Positions 27,204-39,508 of a stretch of 39,508 bases of DNA are shown piece after piece; within the stretch, counting starts at the first letter, position 1, and each line of letters opens with the position of its first letter. The DNA comes from Candidatus Dojkabacteria bacterium (GTDB taxonomy: Bacteria > Patescibacteriota > Dojkabacteria > B142 > OLB20). Under the pieces are notes generated by a model, which ran no database searches, was not told where the DNA came from, and saw nothing but the letters and a program-made list of their open reading frames with translations. Both the position numbers and the translations under genes were made by a program. The stretch spans positions 1-39,508 of the forward strand of contig JBHHUN010000008.1 of NCBI GenBank assembly GCA_046753765.1, in the 5' to 3' direction.

Positions 27204-28487
27204 TCAGCTTTGCAGTTGAACAAATCCCGCAACTGCTGCCCCTCTCAGCCCAGAGTCTTTTACAGCTTTTATCCTGATCGTAGTTCCGTTTAGTATCCGT
27301 GACATCTTTTGCACTAGCATCTCCTGAAATCCAGGGACGAAGTTTATGACCGATCCGTCAGCTGCAACAATAAGCTCGTGCTCGGAGCCACCAAACTTTA
27401 CAGCACCTGCAAGCTCCGCCGCGACTAGATCTGTCGCTCTGTCAATAAGTTGTTCTGCTATTTTTGTTAAGTATTCACGCTGCATCTGCGATAGCTGGAT
27501 ACCACCTCTCTCTTCAATCGTATCGTAGTCTCCTTTTAAGATCATAGAGATCAGTTCACCCTCAATCTTGCGGAAAGCCCTGAACATATTCATATCTCCC
27601 TCGCCAACAATTGCCATAGCATAAAGCAGAAGCTTGTAAAGATACCCACCAGCAATCTGAATCTCTGAAAACTTCTTAAGATCAACACTCTCCTCTTCAG
27701 ACAAATTCAGTCTCTCTAACTTGAGTCTGAGATCCTCAAGATACAGCCTGGCTGGTTTTGAGAGAGACTTCATTATCTGCTTAACTCTAAAATATGCAGA
27801 TTCAGTGTTGTAGATATTTCCGTGCGTATCAGTGATTCCAATATTGTATCCTGTTCCAACCACTACCGAGGCAGAGGCTTCCTGGTCTGCAAGCAGCAAC
27901 GCAACAACATCATTGAGTGTAACCCACTTTTCGAAGGCAATACCTGATGCTACAAAGCCATTGCGAAGCCTTTCGGAGATATTAACTGAGGAGCCACGCA
28001 CAATGAATCCTTTACCCCAATCATCACTGTGCCCTTCCCTGCTGGCATCGATGTGGCTATTATTTTTAACAATTTTGGCAGGATAGGAAAAAGTAAACCC
28101 CAGAGCTTCCGGTCTGACCTGCCCATATCTCTCAAGAAACTTTTTTACATACTCACCAACATATTTACTGTATTCGTCCATAGCCAATTCTGTGCCTCTA
28201 AATTGATTGTGTTCTATCTCTGTTCCTTCAACTAATTTCACCTTTCCACTCATTAGTCTGTACAGACCCAACCGAACATTTGTACCACCAATGTCCATTG
28301 CCAGTACCGTTGCATCCGTAGGCGTCAGATCACGCTTTGCCAAGTGGCTGGGAAACATAGATAGAGTTGAATCGCCAGATTTACCTATTGCATTGCTGGC
28401 ATGGGTTTGATAGTCGGCAGCGAGCTGCTTTAACTCAGAAAGAGTGAAAGATTCAAGCTTAAGATCAACGAAGTCAACCAGTCCCAT
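27204..28487 (-). CDS. Hexokinase (eukaryote-type hexokinase family)
   Basis: LAMDIGGTNVR, GFTFSYP, WGKGF, LNDVV, VVGTGYN, NTES, DGSV, SGLRGAA. Confidence 0.85.
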   Translation of the reverse strand: MGLVDFVDLKLESFTLSELKQLAADYQTHASNAIGKSGDSTLSMFPSHLAKRDLTPTDATVLAMDIGGTNVRLGLYRLMSGKVKLVEGTEIEHNQFRGTELAMDEYSKYVGEYVKKFLERYGQVRPEALGFTFSYPAKIVKNNSHIDASREGHSDDWGKGFIVRGSSVNISERLRNGFVASGIAFEKWVTLNDVVALLLADQEASASVVVGTGYNIGITDTHGNIYNTESAYFRVKQIMKSLSKPARLYLEDLRLKLERLNLSEEESVDLKKFSEIQIAGGYLYKLLLYAMAIVGEGDMNMFRAFRKIEGELISMILKGDYDTIEERGGIQLSQMQREYLTKIAEQLIDRATDLVAAELAGAVKFGGSEHELIVAADGSVINFVPGFQEMLVQKMSRILNGTTIRIKAVKDSGLRGAAVAGFVQLQS

Positions 28488-29394: not shown

Positions 29395-29553
29395 TTGTAG
29401 TTGAATCTTCAAACAAAAGAAGGCAATAGCCTTCGCGAATCATTAAATAACCTATTTTTTGATATAATGCAACATAACCCGGTGAGATTTCGCAATTTTA
29501 GAAATCGTTAAGAATTCTGAGTTACAATCGCCCCAAATTTTACCACAAAGCCC

Positions 29554-30228
29554 ATGAGTTCGATCCTGATTATTGAAGACAATGTTTCCTTAGCTGAAAG
29601 CATCAAAGAATACCTGGGCAACAAAAGTTACAGTGTAACACTTTGTCCCGATGGCGAATCAGGTCTAGAAGTCGCCAGAGAGAGAGAATTTGATCTAGTT
29701 GTGCTTGATCTGATGCTTCCCGGCAGAGATGGGATTTCTGTTTTAAAAAGTATGAGACTCGAAGATATTGATGCGCCATTACTCATTCTAAGTAGTAAAA
29801 GTGAGCTGGATGAAATCTGTGAAGGGCTTGAACACGGAGCAGATGCGTATCTTACTAAGCCGTTTAGTATAAGGGAGCTGAAGGCACGTGTTGACGCATT
29901 GCTCAAACGTCCTCCAACACTAAGATCTGCAGTGATAAAGATTGGAGACCTCACTATCGATACAAACACACAACTTATTTTCCAGGACCAAAAACAGATA
30001 GTTTTGCGCAAAAGGGAGTTTGAAATCGTTCGCTTTTTGGCAAAAAATGCAGGAAGAATTATCACTCGTGATCAGTTACTCAATAATATCTGGGATCCGG
30101 CAAGTGAACCATACTACGGAACAATCGATGTACACATCAGCAACATAAGGAGAAAATTCTCACAACAAGGAAAGAACGATCTTATCGAAACCGTTCATGG
30201 AAGAGGGTATATGATCACACCTGCTTGA
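29554..30228 (+). CDS. OmpR/PhoB-family response regulator
   Basis: ILIIED, LDLMLPGRDG, GADAYLTKPF, IETVHGRGY. Confidence 0.95.
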   Translation: MSSILIIEDNVSLAESIKEYLGNKSYSVTLCPDGESGLEVAREREFDLVVLDLMLPGRDGISVLKSMRLEDIDAPLLILSSKSELDEICEGLEHGADAYLTKPFSIRELKARVDALLKRPPTLRSAVIKIGDLTIDTNTQLIFQDQKQIVLRKREFEIVRFLAKNAGRIITRDQLLNNIWDPASEPYYGTIDVHISNIRRKFSQQGKNDLIETVHGRGYMITPA

Positions 30229-30814
30229 GACCGTAGTACGCTGCATATAGTCTCTGGATAATGGTGACAAGACCAAACGCAGACAAAACAATCATACCTA
30301 GCTCCGGAACATTAAAACCCATCACCTCTGTATCGGGTAGCACTGTATAAACTAGAAGAGATAAAGCAATAATAAGAATACGCTCTGGTCTTTCGATAAT
30401 GCCTATATCAAATTTCAGCTTCACTTTCGAGGCGAGTTCAGCGCGGGAGCGTATATAACTAGTTAAATAGGCTGTTACAAAAGCGGCTATCACAATCTCC
30501 CACCTTACCAAACCCGCAAACCCAAATGCTGTTATAAGTAAAGCGTCGGTAAAACGGTCTACAGTAGAGTCAAGTAAGCCGCCAAAGGCACTAACCTTTC
30601 CTTTCTTTCTTGCAACAATACCGTCAAAAAAATCAAGCCCAAAGCCAATCGTGCTGATGAGTGCTGCAATGTAGAAACCTTCGAACAAAAAGACAAAAAA
30701 TAAAATCGCGGGTATAATACTCGAGAGAGTAATAATATTAGGATCAAGTTTAAGTAGTGGACCGGCAACAGCAGCAGTCTTTGGCTCAATTGCAGGTTTT
30801 AATTTGCTAAACAT
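30215..30814 (-). CDS. CDP-alcohol phosphatidyltransferase (PIP/AIP synthase-like)
   Basis: DFFDGIVAR..G..SAFGGLLDSTVDR signature, SYIRSRAE, GIIERPER. Confidence 0.9.
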   Translation of the reverse strand: MFSKLKPAIEPKTAAVAGPLLKLDPNIITLSSIIPAILFFVFLFEGFYIAALISTIGFGLDFFDGIVARKKGKVSAFGGLLDSTVDRFTDALLITAFGFAGLVRWEIVIAAFVTAYLTSYIRSRAELASKVKLKFDIGIIERPERILIIALSLLVYTVLPDTEVMGFNVPELGMIVLSAFGLVTIIQRLYAAYYGLKQV

Positions 30815-30868
30815 ATGTTAGTCTCTAGATTTTAGAATTTGACGTTATTGTAGCATTACTTGAGTACG

Positions 30869-31804
30869 ATGGAGGATACCAAATTTGAGACAAAATTGCA
30901 GCGTTATGCGATATATTCTCCAAAAGAGATAAACGAGTCCCCAATCGATTATATCTTCGATGGCCTTAAGCTTGAGATGTTTGGTAAAGGTATGCAGGCT
31001 CGCACCTATAAAATCAAAGGGAAAGACTGGGTCGTCAAAGAAGGAAGGTGGGATTTGGACCTCTCGGTACTGTTTGGCGGTAGCAATATTCCGTTTCCGG
31101 CGACAATCACTGCAAAGGTAATGAATCTTTTCTCATTTACCTTTCTACCTGACAAAAAAGAAATTGCATATCAATATAAGATGTACCTGACTTTCGTGAA
31201 GTACTTTGGTTACTTCCGTAAAGACGGACGGTATTTCCATCCGCAGAGATCACTGTTGCTCGGAGAGCAGAAGCGAATACGTGATTCACTCTTAGATCTT
31301 AAGCCGAAGATCGAAAAGAAGTACAAACTCAAATTTAATAACAAGATCGACAAAATCCTCACTTCCAACCACAAGTACCACAATTTTTTACCAAAGGAGT
31401 ACTTACTTTTTGGGCAAAGTATCTCACCTGAAAACAAGGGTAAACCAACTTATTTCATCGTTCAGGAATTTATCAAAGGAGAACTTCTACACGATACCGA
31501 AAATGAAGAGCTATCAGATCAGGTTTTAAGCCAGTTGATTATTCTAATCTATCTGATACTTGTGATGCATATGAAAGACCATCTGCTGCCTGACACAAGG
31601 CCGAGATATCCGCTGCTTGAAGCTAATGATTGGCTCACCAAAACCGACAACATCATTGTTTCAAAAAAACGACTGACATTTATTGACACAAGGTGGTTCT
31701 GGGACACAAGGGGGAACTTCATAAAAAGGGGCGGAATCATTCCGGTACAGATTATCAGGCTCGCAAAATACTATTTAACATATCTTTTGGATGATGTTGC
31801 ATAA
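30869..31804 (+). CDS. Hypothetical protein with protein-kinase-like motifs
   Basis: FGKGMQ..Y..WVVKE, QEFIKG, PD..DNIIV, FID. Confidence 0.55.
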   Translation: MEDTKFETKLQRYAIYSPKEINESPIDYIFDGLKLEMFGKGMQARTYKIKGKDWVVKEGRWDLDLSVLFGGSNIPFPATITAKVMNLFSFTFLPDKKEIAYQYKMYLTFVKYFGYFRKDGRYFHPQRSLLLGEQKRIRDSLLDLKPKIEKKYKLKFNNKIDKILTSNHKYHNFLPKEYLLFGQSISPENKGKPTYFIVQEFIKGELLHDTENEELSDQVLSQLIILIYLILVMHMKDHLLPDTRPRYPLLEANDWLTKTDNIIVSKKRLTFIDTRWFWDTRGNFIKRGGIIPVQIIRLAKYYLTYLLDDVA

Positions 31805-32348
31805 ACTGTTCTTTGTAATCTGGTTTTTTCTACCGGCCGCACTTGCTAATACTGCCCCAGTTGTTGTTTCGAAAGTTCCATTCCTGAAGAAGTTCACTCA
31901 ACCAGTCGATTTCGGAAAAAGCTGGAGAGGAAAAAGAATCTTTGGTGACCACAAAACGATACGTGGTTTTGTAGCAGGTATACTCACTGGAATAGGGATC
32001 GCGCTGTTACAATTACACTTTTATAATGCATCCGCTGATCTGCGCGATCTAATTCCGATCGATTATAATGAACTCAATGTAGCATTATTCGGAGGTATCA
32101 GCGCTTTTGGCGCCCTGCTGGGAGATTCTGTAAAAAGCTTTTTTAAGAGGCGCTCAGGGGTTAAGCCTGGACAATCCTGGTTTCCATTTGATCAGGTCGA
32201 CTATATTTTTGGAGGGGTGCTTGCTACGATGCTATTCCTTCGCCTTGAATATGTCGATTACCTCTTGCTCTTCGTTGTATATTTCATCCTCCACCCACTC
32301 TCAACAGTCACCGGTTATCTGCTTAAGCTAAAAGACTCTCCAATATAA
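31791..32348 (+). CDS. CDP-archaeol synthase (CarS)-like cytidylyltransferase
   Basis: PA.LAN..PV, PVDFG..IFGDHKT.RG, GD..KSFFKRR, PFDQVD. Confidence 0.88.
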   Translation: MMLHKLFFVIWFFLPAALANTAPVVVSKVPFLKKFTQPVDFGKSWRGKRIFGDHKTIRGFVAGILTGIGIALLQLHFYNASADLRDLIPIDYNELNVALFGGISAFGALLGDSVKSFFKRRSGVKPGQSWFPFDQVDYIFGGVLATMLFLRLEYVDYLLLFVVYFILHPLSTVTGYLLKLKDSPI

Positions 32349-32671
32349 TGCGTATCGGGATCGACATTGTTGATATTGACGACTTTCGAGATCAGCTTAG
32401 CAAGACTTCCGGTGGATTGGCCAAGAAACTTTTCAGTGCAAGCGAGCTATCAGATAGAAGCACTCAGAGCCTCGCCGGAATATTCGCTGCCAAGGAAGCG
32501 ATTATCAAAACAGGACTTTTCACGAAAGGTGAGTGGCTGAAAATCAAACTCGCAAACGACGCTGACGGTAAACCGAAGCTTCGCAATAAGCTCCAGGCTG
32601 GAACCAAACTGGATATTTCAATCTCACACACAGAGAAAACTGCCGTTGCTGTCGCCATACTCCACAGTTAA
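32348..32671 (+). CDS. acpS: Holo-ACP synthase (4'-phosphopantetheinyl transferase)
   Basis: GIDIV, AGIFAAKEAIIK, GKP, ISISH..AVA. Confidence 0.9.
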   Translation: MRIGIDIVDIDDFRDQLSKTSGGLAKKLFSASELSDRSTQSLAGIFAAKEAIIKTGLFTKGEWLKIKLANDADGKPKLRNKLQAGTKLDISISHTEKTAVAVAILHS

Positions 32672-35205
32672 CGGAGTTGGTACTTCTCTTTCAGCCCCAA
32701 GATCGATTCCCAGATCATTTTCTTAGCCGCATCATCGTTAGTAAAGCTCTCTACCTTAAAGCTGTCACCGACAGCAACAGATACATCTCTGTCAGCTGAG
32801 AAGTTAGGGATGTACTTTGTCGGTGTATCGGGAGTAAAAATCTTCGACCACGTCTGTTCGATGTAACATGGAACAATTGGAATATCAGTTGCTTTCGCTA
32901 TAAAGGCTGCGCCGTCCCTAACCTGTCTTATGTCATCATCGTTGAGAGTATTCTCACCCATGGGTACAATTAACATTGACATACCCTTATCCAAGAGTGT
33001 CCCAATTTTTTCGAATGTTTCTTTGATGTGACTCCCGCTTTTATCCACCGGTATTGCGCCGGCAAAGATCTCCTCTAGGAAGCCATATTTTATTCTGTCG
33101 ATCCCCTTCCAAAATTGAGATGATGCCACCAGAAAAGTGTTTCTAAGCTCACGATTATTAAGTGCAGACATAATAGTCAGAAGGTCATAGGGCCCTGGGT
33201 GGTTGGCAATGTATATCGCCTGCTTCTGTCGTAATTTATCAGCGTTGATGACTTTAACATTTGTTACAAGTCTTAGCCCGGGAAAGATTAACAAGCGAAG
33301 AGCGATAACGCGTATCAACTTTATAAACCATCCAAACTGCCATCCAGCGAGCTCAATGTTGTGTTTGTTGACTTTTGGACTAGCTTTGACAAGCTCACAC
33401 AGATCTTCAAATGTTGTGTTGGCATCGATCTGATTCTCGTCAATTTCTGTTGAAAACTCTTCCTCCAGAAGAGTGATTATAGAAAGTCGCTTCAACGAAT
33501 CAATCTTTAAATCTCTCCCCAGAACAGAGTTTTTCTTAACTCTATTGAGTGGCAGTGAGCATACAAATGCAACGATGTCCCTCGTTTTCGTCAGTTCAAT
33601 AGGACTCCCTTTATCATCTTTTGTAAATGTTTCAATAATACCCTTCTCTATTATCTCCCGTGCTTTCTCCTCTATTCTTTTACGGATCACCTTGAGAGTT
33701 GGTGTCCGGGGAAAGTCTTCTTCAGGCCACTCCACCTGATAACTTATCTTTTGACTTACTTCAAGCTTTTGATTCGCCCTCTCAATCAAGCGGTCGATAT
33801 CTGAGTTTGGCCGATCAGGTATGATCGTTGCTGCAACAAACACTGTCTTATTTTCAAGATAGGGAAAAACAACGGCATCTTTAATGCCTTTAATCTGGCG
33901 CAACTGATATTCGATGTCTTCGGGGTAAACCTTTTCGCCAGTCGACAGAACGATTCTAAACTTCTGCCTTCCCTTGAGGACAAGATTTCCGTTCTCATCA
34001 AACGCACCGATATCCCCTGTTTTGAAGTATCCTTCTGAGTCAAACACCTGCTTATTTAGGTCATCCCTCTCATAGTACCCGGAGAAAACGACATCCCCCT
34101 TTATTAAGACTTCACCTTCGTCTGTAAATTTGATATCAATGCCAGGGATTGGTTTACCTGAAGATCCGATAACGTTATTTTCCGGGGTGTTCATGGTTAC
34201 TACAGCAGTTGTTTCTGTAAGGCCGTAGCCTTCAATGATATCTACCCCAAATAAGCTCCAGATCCTCTGAACCCTTTTATCGATCTTAGCTCCACCAAGT
34301 GTCACCATCTCCAGTTTTCCACCAAACTGTTTGAGTATCGGGGAAAAAAGTATCCGTCTGCCGAACCTCGGCAGATATACACTTATCCGCAGCATGAGGC
34401 CAAACAACCAGCCCATTTTGAACCGCTTGAATTTGTAGATAATCCTGTTGGTAAAGGTTTTGAGAGCTTCTGGTACAAGCACAAGGTGTGTAACCTTATA
34501 CTCATTTAGCGATGTTGAGATTACCGAAGAGGTTAATCTACTGACATAAAATATCGTCACACCATACTTCAGTGGGTATATTAGACTGACAATCTGTTCG
34601 TAGATATGGCTGTATGGGAGTATCGAAAGCATTCTTGAGTGCTTCTTTATCGAGATCGCCTGCTGGAGAGTCTCTACCTCAGTGATGAAGTTTTTACGAT
34701 TTAGCATCACCCCCTTGGGTTCACCCGTTGTGCCCGAAGTGAACATAATCTCAAGGAGGTCATCGCCCTTTAGATCTGTTCTAAATTCGGCTTCGTCAAG
34801 GTTGCGAGCATAATCGAAGATGTGTTCAATATTAACAACCTCTATATCGGTGCCAACCAGTGATGGCAGGAAAGTCGATTTCAGTATCAGATCAGGTTTG
34901 ATCCAACTTAAGTATTTTCCTATGAGGTCAGTAGATGACTGCACACTTGCGGGCACTACCACAATCCCCTCCAAAATGCAGGCAAGATATGCAAGTGTCC
35001 ATTCTGGCATGTTGGGTGCCCAAAACAGCACCTTGCTCCCCTTATCGAGCTTTTTGGACTTAAAATACGTGATCAGCGTGCGGATCAACTCGAGTGATTG
35101 GGCGTAAGTATACCCTGAGTAAAAATACTCGCGTTTAATCTTAAGTAACAGGTGCTCAGGGTGTCTCTGAAGTGACTGAACGATGTACTCGCCTAGCTTA
35201 TCCAT
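32668..35205 (-). CDS. Fused long-chain acyl-AMP ligase / acyl carrier / PlsC-type acyltransferase
   Basis: FTSGTTGEPKG, GYGLTET, FKTGDIG; IDSL carrier serine; ANHPGPYD (NHx4D). Confidence 0.88.
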   Translation of the reverse strand: MDKLGEYIVQSLQRHPEHLLLKIKREYFYSGYTYAQSLELIRTLITYFKSKKLDKGSKVLFWAPNMPEWTLAYLACILEGIVVVPASVQSSTDLIGKYLSWIKPDLILKSTFLPSLVGTDIEVVNIEHIFDYARNLDEAEFRTDLKGDDLLEIMFTSGTTGEPKGVMLNRKNFITEVETLQQAISIKKHSRMLSILPYSHIYEQIVSLIYPLKYGVTIFYVSRLTSSVISTSLNEYKVTHLVLVPEALKTFTNRIIYKFKRFKMGWLFGLMLRISVYLPRFGRRILFSPILKQFGGKLEMVTLGGAKIDKRVQRIWSLFGVDIIEGYGLTETTAVVTMNTPENNVIGSSGKPIPGIDIKFTDEGEVLIKGDVVFSGYYERDDLNKQVFDSEGYFKTGDIGAFDENGNLVLKGRQKFRIVLSTGEKVYPEDIEYQLRQIKGIKDAVVFPYLENKTVFVAATIIPDRPNSDIDRLIERANQKLEVSQKISYQVEWPEEDFPRTPTLKVIRKRIEEKAREIIEKGIIETFTKDDKGSPIELTKTRDIVAFVCSLPLNRVKKNSVLGRDLKIDSLKRLSIITLLEEEFSTEIDENQIDANTTFEDLCELVKASPKVNKHNIELAGWQFGWFIKLIRVIALRLLIFPGLRLVTNVKVINADKLRQKQAIYIANHPGPYDLLTIMSALNNRELRNTFLVASSQFWKGIDRIKYGFLEEIFAGAIPVDKSGSHIKETFEKIGTLLDKGMSMLIVPMGENTLNDDDIRQVRDGAAFIAKATDIPIVPCYIEQTWSKIFTPDTPTKYIPNFSADRDVSVAVGDSFKVESFTNDDAAKKMIWESILGLKEKYQLR

Positions 35206-35244
35206 AAATACCACTATACAGTACCCCGGGATATTATCAAGCGA

Positions 35245-35928
35245 CTACTTTGCGGGGAACGTAACCGTGAAAGAGGCTCCTGCAGGCACGAGGTTGCTCA
35301 CTGAAATCCTTGCATTCATTTCAGAGAAGATCTCTGCAGCTGTGTACAAGCCACGCCCTCTGTTTTTAGATTTGCTTGAGACAACACTCCTGAACAATTC
35401 CTTCCTGACCTTTTTAGAGATACCAGGGCCTGAATCGCTAATCCGCATAGTAAACTCTTTTGGGGTTCGAGTTGTGGATACTTTTATCATCTTTGGCTCT
35501 CTCTTACTATTTTCGAGCGCCTCAATAGAGTTCAGCAGCAGGTTTGATACAGCCCTTTGGAACGTCGAAAGGCTGGCTGTGAGCATTTTGTCATCATTAA
35601 AGTCTGCCTCAATGAGTATACCAGCAAGGCTACATCGCAATTCAAAGAAGCTCAGGAGCTTTGACAGCTCACTCACTACAGAAAAAGAGCTCTTGATAGC
35701 ACCGTCAGAACGCCCCTGTCTTGAATCTACAATGATTCTGTTCACCTGATTGATGCCGATCATTGCCTTTTCAAGTTTTTCAACAAGTAGCGACTTCTGG
35801 TCGTCCTTGAGCTCTTCATAAACAAGATCAAGGCTGATCTGAACAATCGTCAGAGGGTTTGCAATATCGTGGAGCAGTCTTTGCATTTTATCTGTATATG
35901 GTTTTTTGTTTTTCTTTTCTGCCTGCAT
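35245..35928 (-). CDS. Cytoplasmic histidine kinase lacking a sensor domain
   Basis: HDIANPL, NLLLNSIEA, DSGPGI, GRGLY. Confidence 0.85.
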   Translation of the reverse strand: MQAEKKNKKPYTDKMQRLLHDIANPLTIVQISLDLVYEELKDDQKSLLVEKLEKAMIGINQVNRIIVDSRQGRSDGAIKSSFSVVSELSKLLSFFELRCSLAGILIEADFNDDKMLTASLSTFQRAVSNLLLNSIEALENSKREPKMIKVSTTRTPKEFTMRISDSGPGISKKVRKELFRSVVSSKSKNRGRGLYTAAEIFSEMNARISVSNLVPAGASFTVTFPAK

Positions 35929-36047
35929 CGATCTTTTCCGCTGGATCGGGCAGTATCAGAAATATACATTTCAAAGTCATCTTTTGCATTGTGCTGCAAT
36001 ACAAATTTCGTGGAAATTTGGGTGTTTTTGTGTAATATTAAGTTGAG

Positions 36048-36935: not shown

Positions 36936-37003
36936 CTCCACACCTGCAGGATTATTCCGCGATCCAGACGAATGTGCTACAATCAATCTGCTGCAAGGCT
37001 ATT

Positions 37004-37076
37004 GCGCGAATAGCTCAATGGATAGAGCAACTGCCTTCTAAGCAGTAGGTTGCAGGTTCGAATCCTGCTTCGCGCA
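37004..37076 (+). tRNA. tRNA-Arg(TCT)
   Basis: GCGCGAA...TTCGCGC-A, anticodon arm ACTGC-CTTCTAA-GCAGT. Confidence 0.95.
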
Positions 37077-37153
37077 TATTTTTTGACTGGAACACTGATC
37101 TACTTTTGACTTTCGAAGTAATTTCTCTTATGCTTGTAGCAGAACTATTTTAA

Positions 37154-38463: not shown

Positions 38464-38521
38464 GGTTGTTGTATCCCGATTATCCATGAAGGTGGAGTAA
38501 TCGGAGGCAGCGGTTTGTGGT
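38464..38521 (+). repeat. Degenerate 5' half of tRNA-His with the D-arm replaced by a hairpin
   Basis: ggttgttgta-[tcccgattatcca..tggagtaatcgga]-ggcagcggtttgtggt versus tRNA ggtgactgta-gctcagctggttag-agcatcggtttgtggt. Confidence 0.65.
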
Positions 38522-38596
38522 GACTGTAGCTCAGCTGGTTAGAGCATCGGTTTGTGGTACCGAGGGTCGTGGGTTCGAATCCCTCCAGTCACCCCA
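38519..38596 (+). tRNA. tRNA-His(GTG)
   Basis: G-1 plus GTGACTG...CAGTCAC-C-CCA, anticodon arm TCGGT-TTGTGGT-ACCGA; one T-stem mismatch; TGGTATAAT at 38453-38461. Confidence 0.93.
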
Positions 38597-39508
38597 ATTG
38601 ATAGTTTTAGGAGCAGAAACGACTTCAACCATTGAATCCCAAGGTTTTTGAAAGTTCCAACGCACCTCTTTGTTATTTAAAGTTATGTTCTCTCCGATTT
38701 CAAGTATGATTTCCCTCTTTTGCTGAATCGATCCCTCCTCAAAGGCTTTGTCTATTGATCCCAATTTTTCGAAGAGAAGTTCCAACCTATCTCTGATTTC
38801 TTTTCTTGAATATGTACTATCCTTTCGAAGCTCTTCTAACCGCATAACCTCTTGATTGATCTCCTCCTTTTTGGACAGATATTCTTCTTTCGATAATTCC
38901 TCTGAAAGCCTTAACTCAAGAAGTTTATTCTGCTTATCTAAGGCTAAATTAATCTGCTTCTCAATGTCAGCTCTTTGTTCGACTTCTGATTTGAAAGAAT
39001 CTTCCAGATATTGGAACGTGTAGTTCTTCAGTTGGGCCAATCTTTCAGGACTGATTCGAATCATTCTGCATTTCTCATAGAAATACTCATTAAGATAGTT
39101 CTCTGTAACAGGAGGATTACCACAATTACCCTTTCTTTTAGTACAAGAATAGTATGTATATTCTTTCCCATTGGGTTTTATCTTTGTGTAAGCAGTAATA
39201 GACAAGCCACATCGGTCGCACTTCATTACTCCTTTGAATGCATGATCCCTTCTTCGGAATATTGGTTTAGTTTTATCATCCAATACATCTTGAAGAACCT
39301 TCCACTTTTCCATAGATACCAGTGGTTCCCATGTTCCTTTGACTTCGGGATAATCCCCATAACGAAGCACCCCAGCATACACAGGGTTTCTAAGCATTCT
39401 ATGCACCATACTTTTCGTAAAGTACCTTCCTTTTCGTGTCTTAATACCCCACTCCTTTAGCAGTAGTGTCGCCTGAGAGAAATTGTCCCAATGACATTAG
39501 AAATTACG
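38531..39508 (-). mobile_element. Large serine recombinase (recombinase + Zn ribbon + coiled coil), C-terminal part; edge of an integrated element
   Basis: LRNPVYAG, WEPLVS..W..Q, KCDRCG, YYSC..C; its C-terminus WGDWRDSNPRP is the antisense of tRNA-His. Confidence 0.85.

Follow-up and report, generated by a model that had tools for sequence, protein, structure and literature searches.

We report here the organization and probable roles of five genes in a 39,508-nucleotide contig (JBHHUN010000008.1, the whole of which we refer to as the window) from a Candidatus Dojkabacteria bacterium, one belonging to the Candidate Phyla Radiation (CPR). On balance we favor the view that these genes constitute two lipid-salvage modules lying side by side in a genome in which we detected no pathway for making lipid de novo. 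Module A, the conserved core, comprises a protein with a kinase fold, an integral-membrane cytidine triphosphate (CTP)-transferase related to archaeal CarS, and a cytidine diphosphate (CDP)-alcohol phosphatidyltransferase; module B comprises an AcpS-type phosphopantetheinyl transferase and a fusion of an acyl-AMP ligase, an acyl carrier protein (ACP) domain, and a PlsC-like acyltransferase. In module A, the kinase-fold protein would phosphorylate a lipid alcohol obtained by scavenging (diacylglycerol, giving phosphatidate, is the most plausible), the CarS-like protein would convert the lipid phosphate and CTP to a CDP-lipid, and the phosphatidyltransferase, which is inositol-phosphate-like here, would add the head group. 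In module B, AcpS would prime the carrier domain of the fusion itself, the ligase domain would load a free fatty acid onto it through an acyl-AMP intermediate, and the PlsC-like domain would hand the acyl chain on to a lyso-lipid in the manner of Escherichia coli Aas; module B could feed module A in this genome. What the analysis shows are the identities of the genes, the folds, the conserved catalytic motifs, the linkage of the genes, and a failure to find genes of the canonical pathway; each of these substrates, including the lipid target of the kinase, and any supply of module A by module B are our inference.

The linkage of the genes in other genomes defines module A. When the surroundings (up to 20 kb) of the CarS-like genes in 14 relatives were searched with the window proteins, the kinase-like gene was found adjoining the CarS-like gene in 10 of the 14 and the CDP-alcohol transferase gene in seven, with neither the fusion nor AcpS adjoining it in any. 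A scan centered on the kinase-like gene, using one genome per species, yielded 33 loci, with labels including Peribacteria/Peregrinibacteria (15), "Saccharibacteria" (five), Dojkabacteria/WS6 (four), Gracilibacteria (four), and "Gammaproteobacteria" (one); judged by coding density, TGA is read as sense in 10 of these. Of the 33 loci, 25 have a CarS-like gene within 4 kb of the kinase-like gene and eight do not, three of these eight being at contig ends; the linkage is seen in Dojkabacteria, Peribacteria, and Gracilibacteria. Among 41 relatives, 15 have the CarS-like gene and all 15 also have a CDP-alcohol transferase, compared with six of the other 26; the kinase-like gene is present in 11 of the 15 and in two of the 26 (G002 and, as a weak match, G029). 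We considered whether the G002 copy, in which one TGA was flagged, is a pseudogene, and rejected this as the reading frame is intact. In a larger sample of 201 genomes of the phylum the kinase-like gene is found in three, all of them CarS-positive, the CarS-like gene in 33, and full-length CdsA in six, with no genome having both CarS-like and CdsA proteins. A CDP-alcohol transferase is present in 70 of the 201 (30 of the 33 CarS-positive, three of the six CdsA-positive, and 37 of the 162 with neither), and it is within 1.1 kb of the CarS-like gene in 20 of the 33.

The CarS-like protein is most likely the supplier of CDP-lipid, and by virtue of its gene context this is the firmest step in our proposal. 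It matches PF01864 at 91.1 bits (cut-off 22, E 1.1e-25) across profile positions 2–173 of 175, and a sequence search of the PDB gives a single match, the CarS of Aeropyrum pernix (5GUF; E 2.2e-13, 176 residues aligned), with which it shares the pattern GD-x3-SF-x-KRR-x-G...DQ-x-D. Residues D112, S116, K119, R120, D134, and D137 are invariant among 41 sequences of the family. The predicted structure (predicted local distance difference test score, pLDDT, 91.7) has the five-helix fold of the A. pernix enzyme, with 5GUF again the first-ranked match (template modelling (TM) scores of 0.67/0.78, root-mean-square deviation (rmsd) of 3.5, 166 columns) and the CdsA of Thermotoga maritima next at a TM score of 0.41; with this fold and these invariant residues the modelled protein looks like an active enzyme. 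The archaeal proteins (5GUF and that of Archaeoglobus fulgidus) belong to the same family, are of similar size at about 180 residues, share the predicted fold, and have CDP-alcohol phosphatidyltransferases downstream in their pathway. The protein described here differs in that it is bacterial and falls below the cut-off of the CDP-archaeol synthase equivalog NF003114 (137.4 bits against 148; relatives score 110–123), and in that it is encoded beside head-group enzymes of bacterial type and a protein with a kinase fold, with no partners of the geranylgeranylglyceryl phosphate (GGGP) synthase, digeranylgeranylglyceryl phosphate (DGGGP) synthase, or glycerol-1-phosphate (G1P) dehydrogenase types found in the genome. 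CdsA (4Q2E/4Q2G in T. maritima) is of the same superfamily and has the role that we propose here, the provision of CDP-lipid to enzymes of the PssA, PgsA, Pcs, and phosphatidylinositol-phosphate (PIP) synthase types, and the CarS-like protein does match the C-terminal CdsA signature in part (PF01148 positions 169–231 of 264, 32.3 bits). However, it is about 100 residues shorter than CdsA, resembles it weakly in fold, and scores only 20.7 bits against NF008635, for which the cut-off is 385. The presence of CarS genes in the CPR is already on record, in that public entries name these proteins "CDP-archaeol synthase", and there are more than 2,500 relatives in the family at E <1e-5. Two CarS-like proteins 53% identical to that in the window (P0224 and P0236) are filed under Chloroflexota metagenome-assembled genomes (Ktedonobacteraceae and Limnocylindrales), and either the bacterial CarS branch extends beyond the CPR or these are mixed bins.

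The third member of module A matches PF01066 (60 bits, cut-off 22, E 4.7e-16), has several hydrophobic segments, and reads DFFDGIVAR...GGLLDSTVD, which fits what we take to be the CDP-alcohol family motif, D-x2-D-G-x2-A-R...G-x3-D-x3-D. The best NCBIfam matches of this 199-residue protein are to archaetidylinositol-phosphate (AIP) synthase (NF040950, 137.7 bits, cut-off 180) and PIP synthase (NF045883, 96.8 bits, cut-off 170). It thus resembles the archaeal AIP synthases and the PIP synthases of the mycobacterial PgsA1 type, but it is below both cut-offs, the genome has no match to an inositol-1-phosphate synthase (PF07994), and the cluster contains no phosphatase gene. A second AIP/PIP-synthase-like CDP-alcohol transferase of 233 residues is encoded elsewhere in this genome (C18, L067:4412-5113(+); NF040950, 92 bits), where it adjoins ZnuA and a YqeG-like HAD phosphatase.

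The head-group enzyme that accompanies the kinase-like and CarS-like genes is not constant. Pfam and NCBIfam searches of the neighbors at 20 kinase-like loci show an AIP/PIP-synthase-like partner in Dojkabacteria (153–159 bits), and in four Gracilibacteria loci using code 25 the order is kinase-like gene, a PssA/archaetidylserine-synthase-like transferase, and CarS-like gene, with a phosphatidylserine decarboxylase gene converging on the CarS-like gene in three of the four. In Peribacteria the partner is PgsA-like in two loci (L040 and L059, directly after the kinase-like gene in L059) and PgpA adjoins the CarS-like gene in L038, whereas two loci (L042 and L046) have a phosphatidylcholine-synthase-like partner at 179–191 bits; no lipid gene was seen near the kinase-like gene in L034, L044, L045, or L047. 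Because the class of head-group enzyme varies and all of these classes consume CDP-lipid, the CarS-like protein would be expected to supply the CDP-lipid and the kinase to act on the common, lipid side of the reaction. A succession of kinase, cytidylyltransferase, and CDP-alcohol phosphotransferase is the logic of Kennedy-type pathways, and genes for these three types of reaction are neighbors here; as the cytidylyltransferase is of the membrane CarS type, activation should fall on the lipid rather than on the head group. We also note phosphoesterase genes beside the kinase-like and CarS-like genes in several loci, including a CapA-like metallophosphoesterase upstream of the kinase-like gene (L048:6936-8000, code 25), a Metallophos_2 protein between the CarS-like and transferase genes (L012:5064-5855), and a divergent PAP2 protein (DUF212; L045:6253-6675), and these could be lipid-phosphate phosphatases or enzymes that remove head groups.

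The AcpS and fusion genes have a separate history, constituting a rare, separately conserved two-gene operon. AcpS directly precedes the fusion in all six of the other genomes with a fusion gene (G002, G007, G216, G199, G101, and G069; the G007 fusion gene is split by a contig end), and the CarS-like gene was not found in five of these six. Acyltransferases of PF01553 occur in four of the 41 relatives, as does AcpS, and five genomes of the 201-genome sample, this one among them, have a reading frame of about 840 codons with an acyltransferase match. G002 contains a second fusion copy (L062:8220-9152(-)) that has no adjacent AcpS and adjoins a gene for a family III CoA-transferase. AcpS itself scores 44 bits against PF01648 (E 2.5e-11) and 55.3 bits against the domain model TIGR00556 (cut-off 45.35), placing it in that domain family, although it is below the acpS equivalog TIGR00516 (46.6 bits, cut-off 59.8); the only client for it that we found in the genome is the PP-binding domain of the fusion. 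The Pfam domains of the fusion are AMP-binding (199.8 bits), AMP-binding_C_3 (32.2), PP-binding (27.5), and Acyltransferase (56.3; PF01553 cut-off 23), with a hydrophobic segment at residues 627–651 ahead of the acyltransferase domain. In nine fusions of the same architecture, TSGTxxPKG (159–168), the NH-x4-D motif (N671, H672, D677), and P751/G753 of a P-x-G motif are invariant, the serine of the carrier-domain DSL is present in eight of the nine, and the PF01553 score together with the H-x4-D motif places the last domain in the LPLAT/PlsC superfamily. The fusions of other genomes are 27–32% identical to that in the window, and a search by word matching with its C-terminal 319 residues, covering 5.8 billion proteins, returned two other proteins only, both of the same architecture.

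The closest parallel for the fusion is E. coli Aas, the 2-acylglycerophosphoethanolamine acyltransferase/acyl-ACP synthetase, in which an acyltransferase is followed by a ligase and which uses free ACP; stand-alone acyl-ACP synthetases are also familiar in lipid-scavenging bacteria. Both proteins join an AMP-forming fatty-acid ligase to a PlsC-type acyltransferase, with a shared logic of carrier-bound activation of free fatty acid followed by re-acylation of a lysolipid, but in the fusion the order is reversed (ligase, carrier, acyltransferase), it has a carrier domain of its own in place of free ACP, and a dedicated AcpS is encoded alongside. The Aas equivalog NF006386 is one of the fusion's best NCBIfam matches, but at 163.3 bits against a cut-off of 1221 the fusion is not a member of that family, and its acyltransferase domain alone scores 41.9 bits against TIGR00530 (AGPAT, cut-off 103) and 39.8 against NF006386. 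Module B probably re-acylates lysolipids in an Aas-like manner.

These distributions bear on another interpretation, that which was proposed in the initial annotation, in which AcpS, the fusion, the CarS-like protein, and the CDP-alcohol transferase form a single linear pathway from fatty acid by way of lysolipid, phosphatidate, and CDP-diacylglycerol to phospholipid, with the kinase-like gene as an incidental neighbor. In its favor, all of the genes fall within 5 kb and their ends overlap, AcpS runs in the same direction as the kinase-like and CarS-like genes, the chemistry is coherent, and the fusion is the only PlsC-type acyltransferase in the genome. However, the absence of the fusion and AcpS from all 14 of the CarS loci in relatives, the existence of both as an operon of their own, in five of six cases in genomes without the CarS-like gene, the lack of any PF01553 acyltransferase in 13 of the 15 CarS-positive relatives, and the far tighter linkage of the CarS-like gene to the kinase-like gene than to the fusion make a single pathway unlikely. 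The initial annotation is therefore supported in part: all five of the genes it described are present as open reading frames (ORFs) at the coordinates it gave and Pfam matches confirm four of the names it gave (CDP-alcohol transferase, CarS-like protein, AcpS, and acyl-AMP ligase–ACP–PlsC fusion), but the proposed five-gene cluster is not conserved as a unit, an outcome that the annotation itself had named as refuting.

The kinase-like protein belongs to no described family. The 314-residue ORF has no Pfam or NCBIfam match in profile scans, and when 44 family members were compared with Pfam at E values up to 5 no family was common to more than four of them, the sole match to a kinase family being one to Pkinase at E 0.12; by these profiles it falls in none of the Pkinase, APH, RIO1, ABC1/UbiB, Kdo, DgkA, or DAGK_cat families. 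A profile search of the PDB gave nothing relevant, and the ESM Atlas returned generic kinase folds in clusters without names. The AlphaFold model, built with 44 homologues, has a pLDDT of 90.5, and the top Foldseek neighbors listed for it (PknG, PINK1, FIKK, COQ8A, and ArkI) are all of protein-kinase-like (PKL) folds at probabilities of about 1.0. The VIA-align neighbors listed are RIOK3 and haspin (both at Z 9.2), followed by PKR, Rio1/2, ArkI, ADCK3, and APH, with a top row of Z 9.2, rmsd 4.1, and 178 residues aligned, values of Z that are near the tool's stated background for such models. On this modelling the protein can be placed in the PKL superfamily at the level of fold only. G44, K60, D245, N264, and D276 are invariant in 44 sequences, and in the model these would correspond to the glycine loop, the beta3 lysine, the catalytic-loop aspartate and asparagine, and the metal-binding (DFG-like) aspartate, respectively, so that the protein looks like an active enzyme. 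Between D245 and N264 there is a conserved insertion, about 13 residues long, that includes P248, W258, T262, and D263. There is no membrane segment apart from a buried core helix, and both the CarS-like protein and the transferase are multi-pass.

The family is small: a 90%-clustered collection contains 123 of its proteins, and a search of 1.84 billion proteins gives 88 representatives when clustered at 50% identity. Save for fragments and one repetitive protein, the latter are all about 300 residues long, and members of the family are labelled hypothetical by the naming sources. Apparent fused forms in ORFs of 532 (L034) and 687 (L041) residues were rejected, these being spurious frames, upstream or alternative, in GC-rich DNA. 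The repetitive protein, of 2103 residues and with a short match only, is the sole long form among the 88 representatives. The closest named homologues of the window protein are from Candidatus Dojkabacteria/WS6, which together with the labels of the syntenic loci agrees with the assignment to the CPR in the initial annotation. That annotation also called the ORF kinase-like, which holds at the level of fold, and placed it outside the pathway, which is at odds with its being the most constant partner of the CarS-like gene.

The lipid-kinase role is the weakest step of the two-module proposal. It would equal that of DgkA and DgkB in converting diacylglycerol to phosphatidate, but the protein belongs neither to PF01219 (DgkA) nor to PF00781 (DAGK_cat) and has a PKL fold outside any Pfam family. 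PF00781 was not detected within 50 kb of the CarS-like gene in any of the 33 CarS-positive genomes of the phylum sample, nor in any of six annotated CarS loci without a kinase-like gene, and many weak PF00781 matches may be NAD kinases. A broader and more speculative form of the proposal, which we advance only tentatively, is that the family represents a new class of lipid kinases acting on diacylglycerol, monoacylglycerol, or even archaeol, and that with the bacterial CarS branch it gives CPR bacteria a route, one not relying on de novo synthesis, from neutral lipids of other cells to phospholipids whose head groups they choose themselves, with module B repairing lysolipids for this route in the present organism.

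A different role for the kinase-like protein must also be considered, in which it makes a polar acceptor such as inositol phosphate, or is a regulatory protein kinase, and phosphatidate is imported as such. Its structural neighbors are all protein or small-molecule kinases, an inositol-phosphate synthase was not found in the genome, the cluster is flanked by a response regulator on one side and a histidine kinase on the other, and most CarS-positive CPR genomes are without the kinase-like gene. Nonetheless, we regard this as improbable. The linkage to the CarS-like gene persists across inositol-phosphate, serine, glycerophosphate, and choline head-group types, which argues against a head-group-specific role, the 14-nucleotide overlap with the CarS-like gene would be unusual for a regulator, and the catalytic-loop insertion is, in our reading of the alignment and model, not seen in the protein kinases listed above.

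The two-module proposal also depends on the genes that appear to be missing. The assembly, of 69 contigs, totals 1.26 Mb and is 94.4% complete, and control searches gave matches in the expected model genomes. Profile searches of it gave no match to PlsX, PlsY, DgkA, DAGK_cat, or patatin, nor to GGGP synthase (PF01884), G1P dehydrogenase (PF13685), or myo-inositol-phosphate synthase; the GpsA match is of 20 bits, below the cut-off, and the sole match to the fatty-acid ketosynthase family is a thiolase. Canonical CdsA was found neither in this genome nor in its 40 relatives, the only PF01148 matches here being the CarS-like protein itself and a 205-residue protein encoded beside MurB. The only PF01553 acyltransferase and the only PP-binding domain found are those of the fusion. 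The check for fab, plsXY, cdsA, and GGGP synthase genes called for in the initial annotation thus found none, the bacterium seems to lack the capacity for de novo synthesis of membrane lipids, and we found no route to phosphatidate other than the one proposed, which favors the two-module interpretation. The 205-residue protein (C3, L024:9253-9870(-)) is a CTP_transf_1 member that covers profile positions 59–195 only and is encoded between alanyl-tRNA synthetase and MurB; similar ORFs occur in two relatives (G001 and G003), and its context prompts the guess that this may be a polyprenol kinase dependent on CTP and not a CdsA. Elsewhere in the genome (C2, L025:266-2765) there are consecutive genes for an archaeal-type 3-hydroxy-3-methylglutaryl coenzyme A (HMG-CoA) synthase (NF003274, 482 bits, over the cut-off), a thiolase, and a DUF35/OB-fold protein, a trio that begins the mevalonate pathway in archaea and is here in a CPR bacterium.

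The archaeal affinities of the CarS-like protein raise the alternative that it activates an isoprenoid glycerol phosphate, derived either from scavenged archaeol re-phosphorylated by the kinase or from a prenyl-glycerol lipid made by the cell itself. Archaeal CarS strongly prefers geranylgeranyl substrates, according to the review PMC9385802, the CarS-like protein is just under the CarS equivalog cut-off, and the transferase scores the archaeal AIP synthase above the bacterial PIP synthase. In addition to the HMG-CoA synthase, thiolase, and DUF35 set, the genome encodes a single polyprenyl synthase and a single UbiA prenyltransferase of generic type, and the sequencing runs with this DNA are labelled as hydrothermal vent metagenome. 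However, GGGP synthase and G1P dehydrogenase were, as noted, not found, and the single UbiA protein reaches 29 bits against a DGGGP synthase cut-off of 353. A fatty-acid ligase and an ester-forming acyltransferase adjoin the cluster, the partners in other lineages are bacterial-type (PssA/Psd, PgsA/PgpA, and Pcs-like), and lipids attributed to the CPR were fatty-acid based in one field study (PMC7242380). Saturated archaetidic acid, moreover, is reportedly disfavored by archaeal CarS (PMC9385802). We therefore consider an isoprenoid substrate to be quite improbable. The further alternative that the output of module A is not bulk membrane phospholipid but some minor lipid-linked compound, for instance the lipid that anchors a surface polymer, seems to us highly improbable, for although the transferases in the 37 genomes without any CDP-lipid synthase imply that this family has other uses in the phylum, and although all of the assignments are below curated cut-offs, the phosphatidylserine decarboxylase and PgpA genes that lie alongside in other lineages are indicative of ordinary synthesis of phosphatidylethanolamine and phosphatidylglycerol.

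Several observations weigh against the two-module interpretation and temper our preference for it. Every specific functional assignment falls below its curated NCBIfam cut-off, and no established lipid kinase is among the fold neighbors of the kinase-like protein (RIO, haspin, PKR, PknG, ArkI, COQ8/ADCK3, and APH; Z ≤9.2). The kinase-like gene is absent from four of the 15 CarS-positive relatives and from 30 of the 33 CarS-positive genomes in the phylum sample, and G002 has an intact kinase-like gene and no CarS-like gene that we could find. The two modules are not co-conserved, only this genome (G000) and G007 of the seven with a fusion having a CarS-like gene. The co-occurrence figures are counts without statistical tests, drawn from related genomes that are not independent, and the absence of genomes with both CarS-like and CdsA proteins was set aside as evidence because about one overlap would be expected by chance; it is not significant, and is compatible with replacement of one by the other. 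No inositol-phosphate synthase that could provide an acceptor for the inositol-type transferase was found in the genome, and with the assembly incomplete (94%, 69 contigs) the failures to find genes are not proof of their absence. Finally, a 2022 review (PMC9385802, citing Jain 2014) reports the purified A. fulgidus CarS to be highly selective for DGGGP over phosphatidate and unable to complement an E. coli cdsA mutant; in crude membranes, according to the same review, there was weak selectivity for ether over ester bonds and for glycerol stereochemistry. A bacterial CarS acting on acyl phosphatidate would thus represent a changed specificity, and of the initial annotation's suggestion that the CarS-like protein replaces CdsA, the supply of CDP-lipid is upheld by gene context whereas the published behavior of the archaeal enzymes, including poor use of phosphatidate, speaks against a simple replacement.

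Positions of the lipid genes and of the two-component genes on either side of them (window coordinates)
Feature	Coordinates	Strand	Length and basis
CDP-alcohol phosphatidyltransferase	30215-30814	-	199 aa; PF01066
Protein-kinase-like (PKL) fold protein	30860-31804	+	314 aa; likely start ATG at 30869; fold only
CarS-family integral-membrane CTP-transferase	31791-32348	+	185 aa; PF01864
AcpS-type 4'-phosphopantetheinyl transferase	32348-32671	+	107 aa; PF01648
Acyl-AMP ligase / ACP / PlsC-like fusion	32668-35214	-	848 aa; Pfam domains
OmpR-type response regulator, flanking the cluster	29554-30228	+	Pfam Response_reg and Trans_reg_C
Small histidine kinase (HATPase_c), flanking the cluster	35245-35928	-	Pfam

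The genes of the cluster are closely packed. The 14-nucleotide overlap of the kinase-like and CarS-like genes suggests that their translation is probably coupled, the CarS-like and AcpS genes have one base in common (TAATG), and the AcpS and fusion genes are convergent with a 4-nucleotide overlap. Database gene calls start the fusion at the ATG at 35205 (P0121, 845 residues), which is also where the initial annotation ended the cluster, and P0001, for the kinase-like protein, has 311 residues. There is a terminator-like site at 30196-30174, 3' of the CDP-alcohol transferase stop codon, and a promoter-like site at 35240-35213 at the fusion gene. Positions 29500-36000 are spanned by contigs of two sequencing runs (X1 and X2) with no differences, but as both runs are from one sample, which is possibly the source of the assembly, this agreement is not independent support; the CarS/AcpS junction is bridged by a short contig of run X4. 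Among the data sets listed as containing the stretch there is none of RNA.

The response regulator and the histidine kinase, the latter without a membrane segment, enclose the lipid genes. In two syntenic genomes (L013/L017 and L027/L028) the response regulator is directly upstream of the kinase-like gene and the histidine kinase is directly after the CarS-like gene, the four genes being consecutive with nothing between them, and this arrangement suggests that the kinase-like and CarS-like pair may be under two-component control. The wider order is retained in L027 and L028 (WS6/Dojkabacteria), which have a hexokinase, a 294-residue membrane protein, the response regulator, the kinase-like gene, the CarS-like gene, and the histidine kinase. 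In the window a hexokinase-family gene is at 27204-28487(-) (Hexokinase_1 and Hexokinase_2), and its order upstream of the kinase-like and CarS-like genes is kept in L013/L017 and L027/L028. Toward the contig end, the 3' end of an ORF of 292 codons (38531-39409(-)) overlaps a tRNA-His gene (38520-38596(+)), and there is a tRNA-Arg gene at 37003-37077; the predicted protein looks recombinase-like, and the region may be an integration site.

The locus can be viewed as a variant of CDP-lipid head-group assembly combined with Aas-type lysolipid re-acylation. CPR genomes are without complete lipid pathways and yet the cells have normal lipid membranes, the source of the lipids being described as unresolved in PMC7242380 and PMC13293708. 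A survey (PMC7242380) is also reported to have detected no ACP-dependent enzymes in the CPR; module B is an exception to this, and its carrier-containing enzyme is of importance for that reason. In a literature search, with supplements outside its scope (the gene tables of PMC7242380 might list the genes), we found no discussion of CarS in the CPR, of the kinase-like family, or of the ligase–ACP–acyltransferase operon; neither CarS nor the CPR is mentioned in Coleman 2019 (PMC6431249), and lipid terms were not found in PMC11452946.

The CPR, or Patescibacteria, accounts for a large share of bacterial diversity, and this locus bears on the origin of its membranes. It offers concrete enzymes to consider, including a CarS-family protein that by its context would supply CDP-lipid in the absence of CdsA, an orphan family of kinase fold, and an Aas-like enzyme that contains a carrier domain and comes with an AcpS of its own. 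If the CarS-like protein does accept acyl phosphatidate, then the view that CarS and CdsA separate the archaeal and bacterial lipid worlds, as it is expressed in PMC9385802, would need to be qualified. The question of where CPR membranes come from becomes addressable at this locus by a few ordinary enzyme assays.

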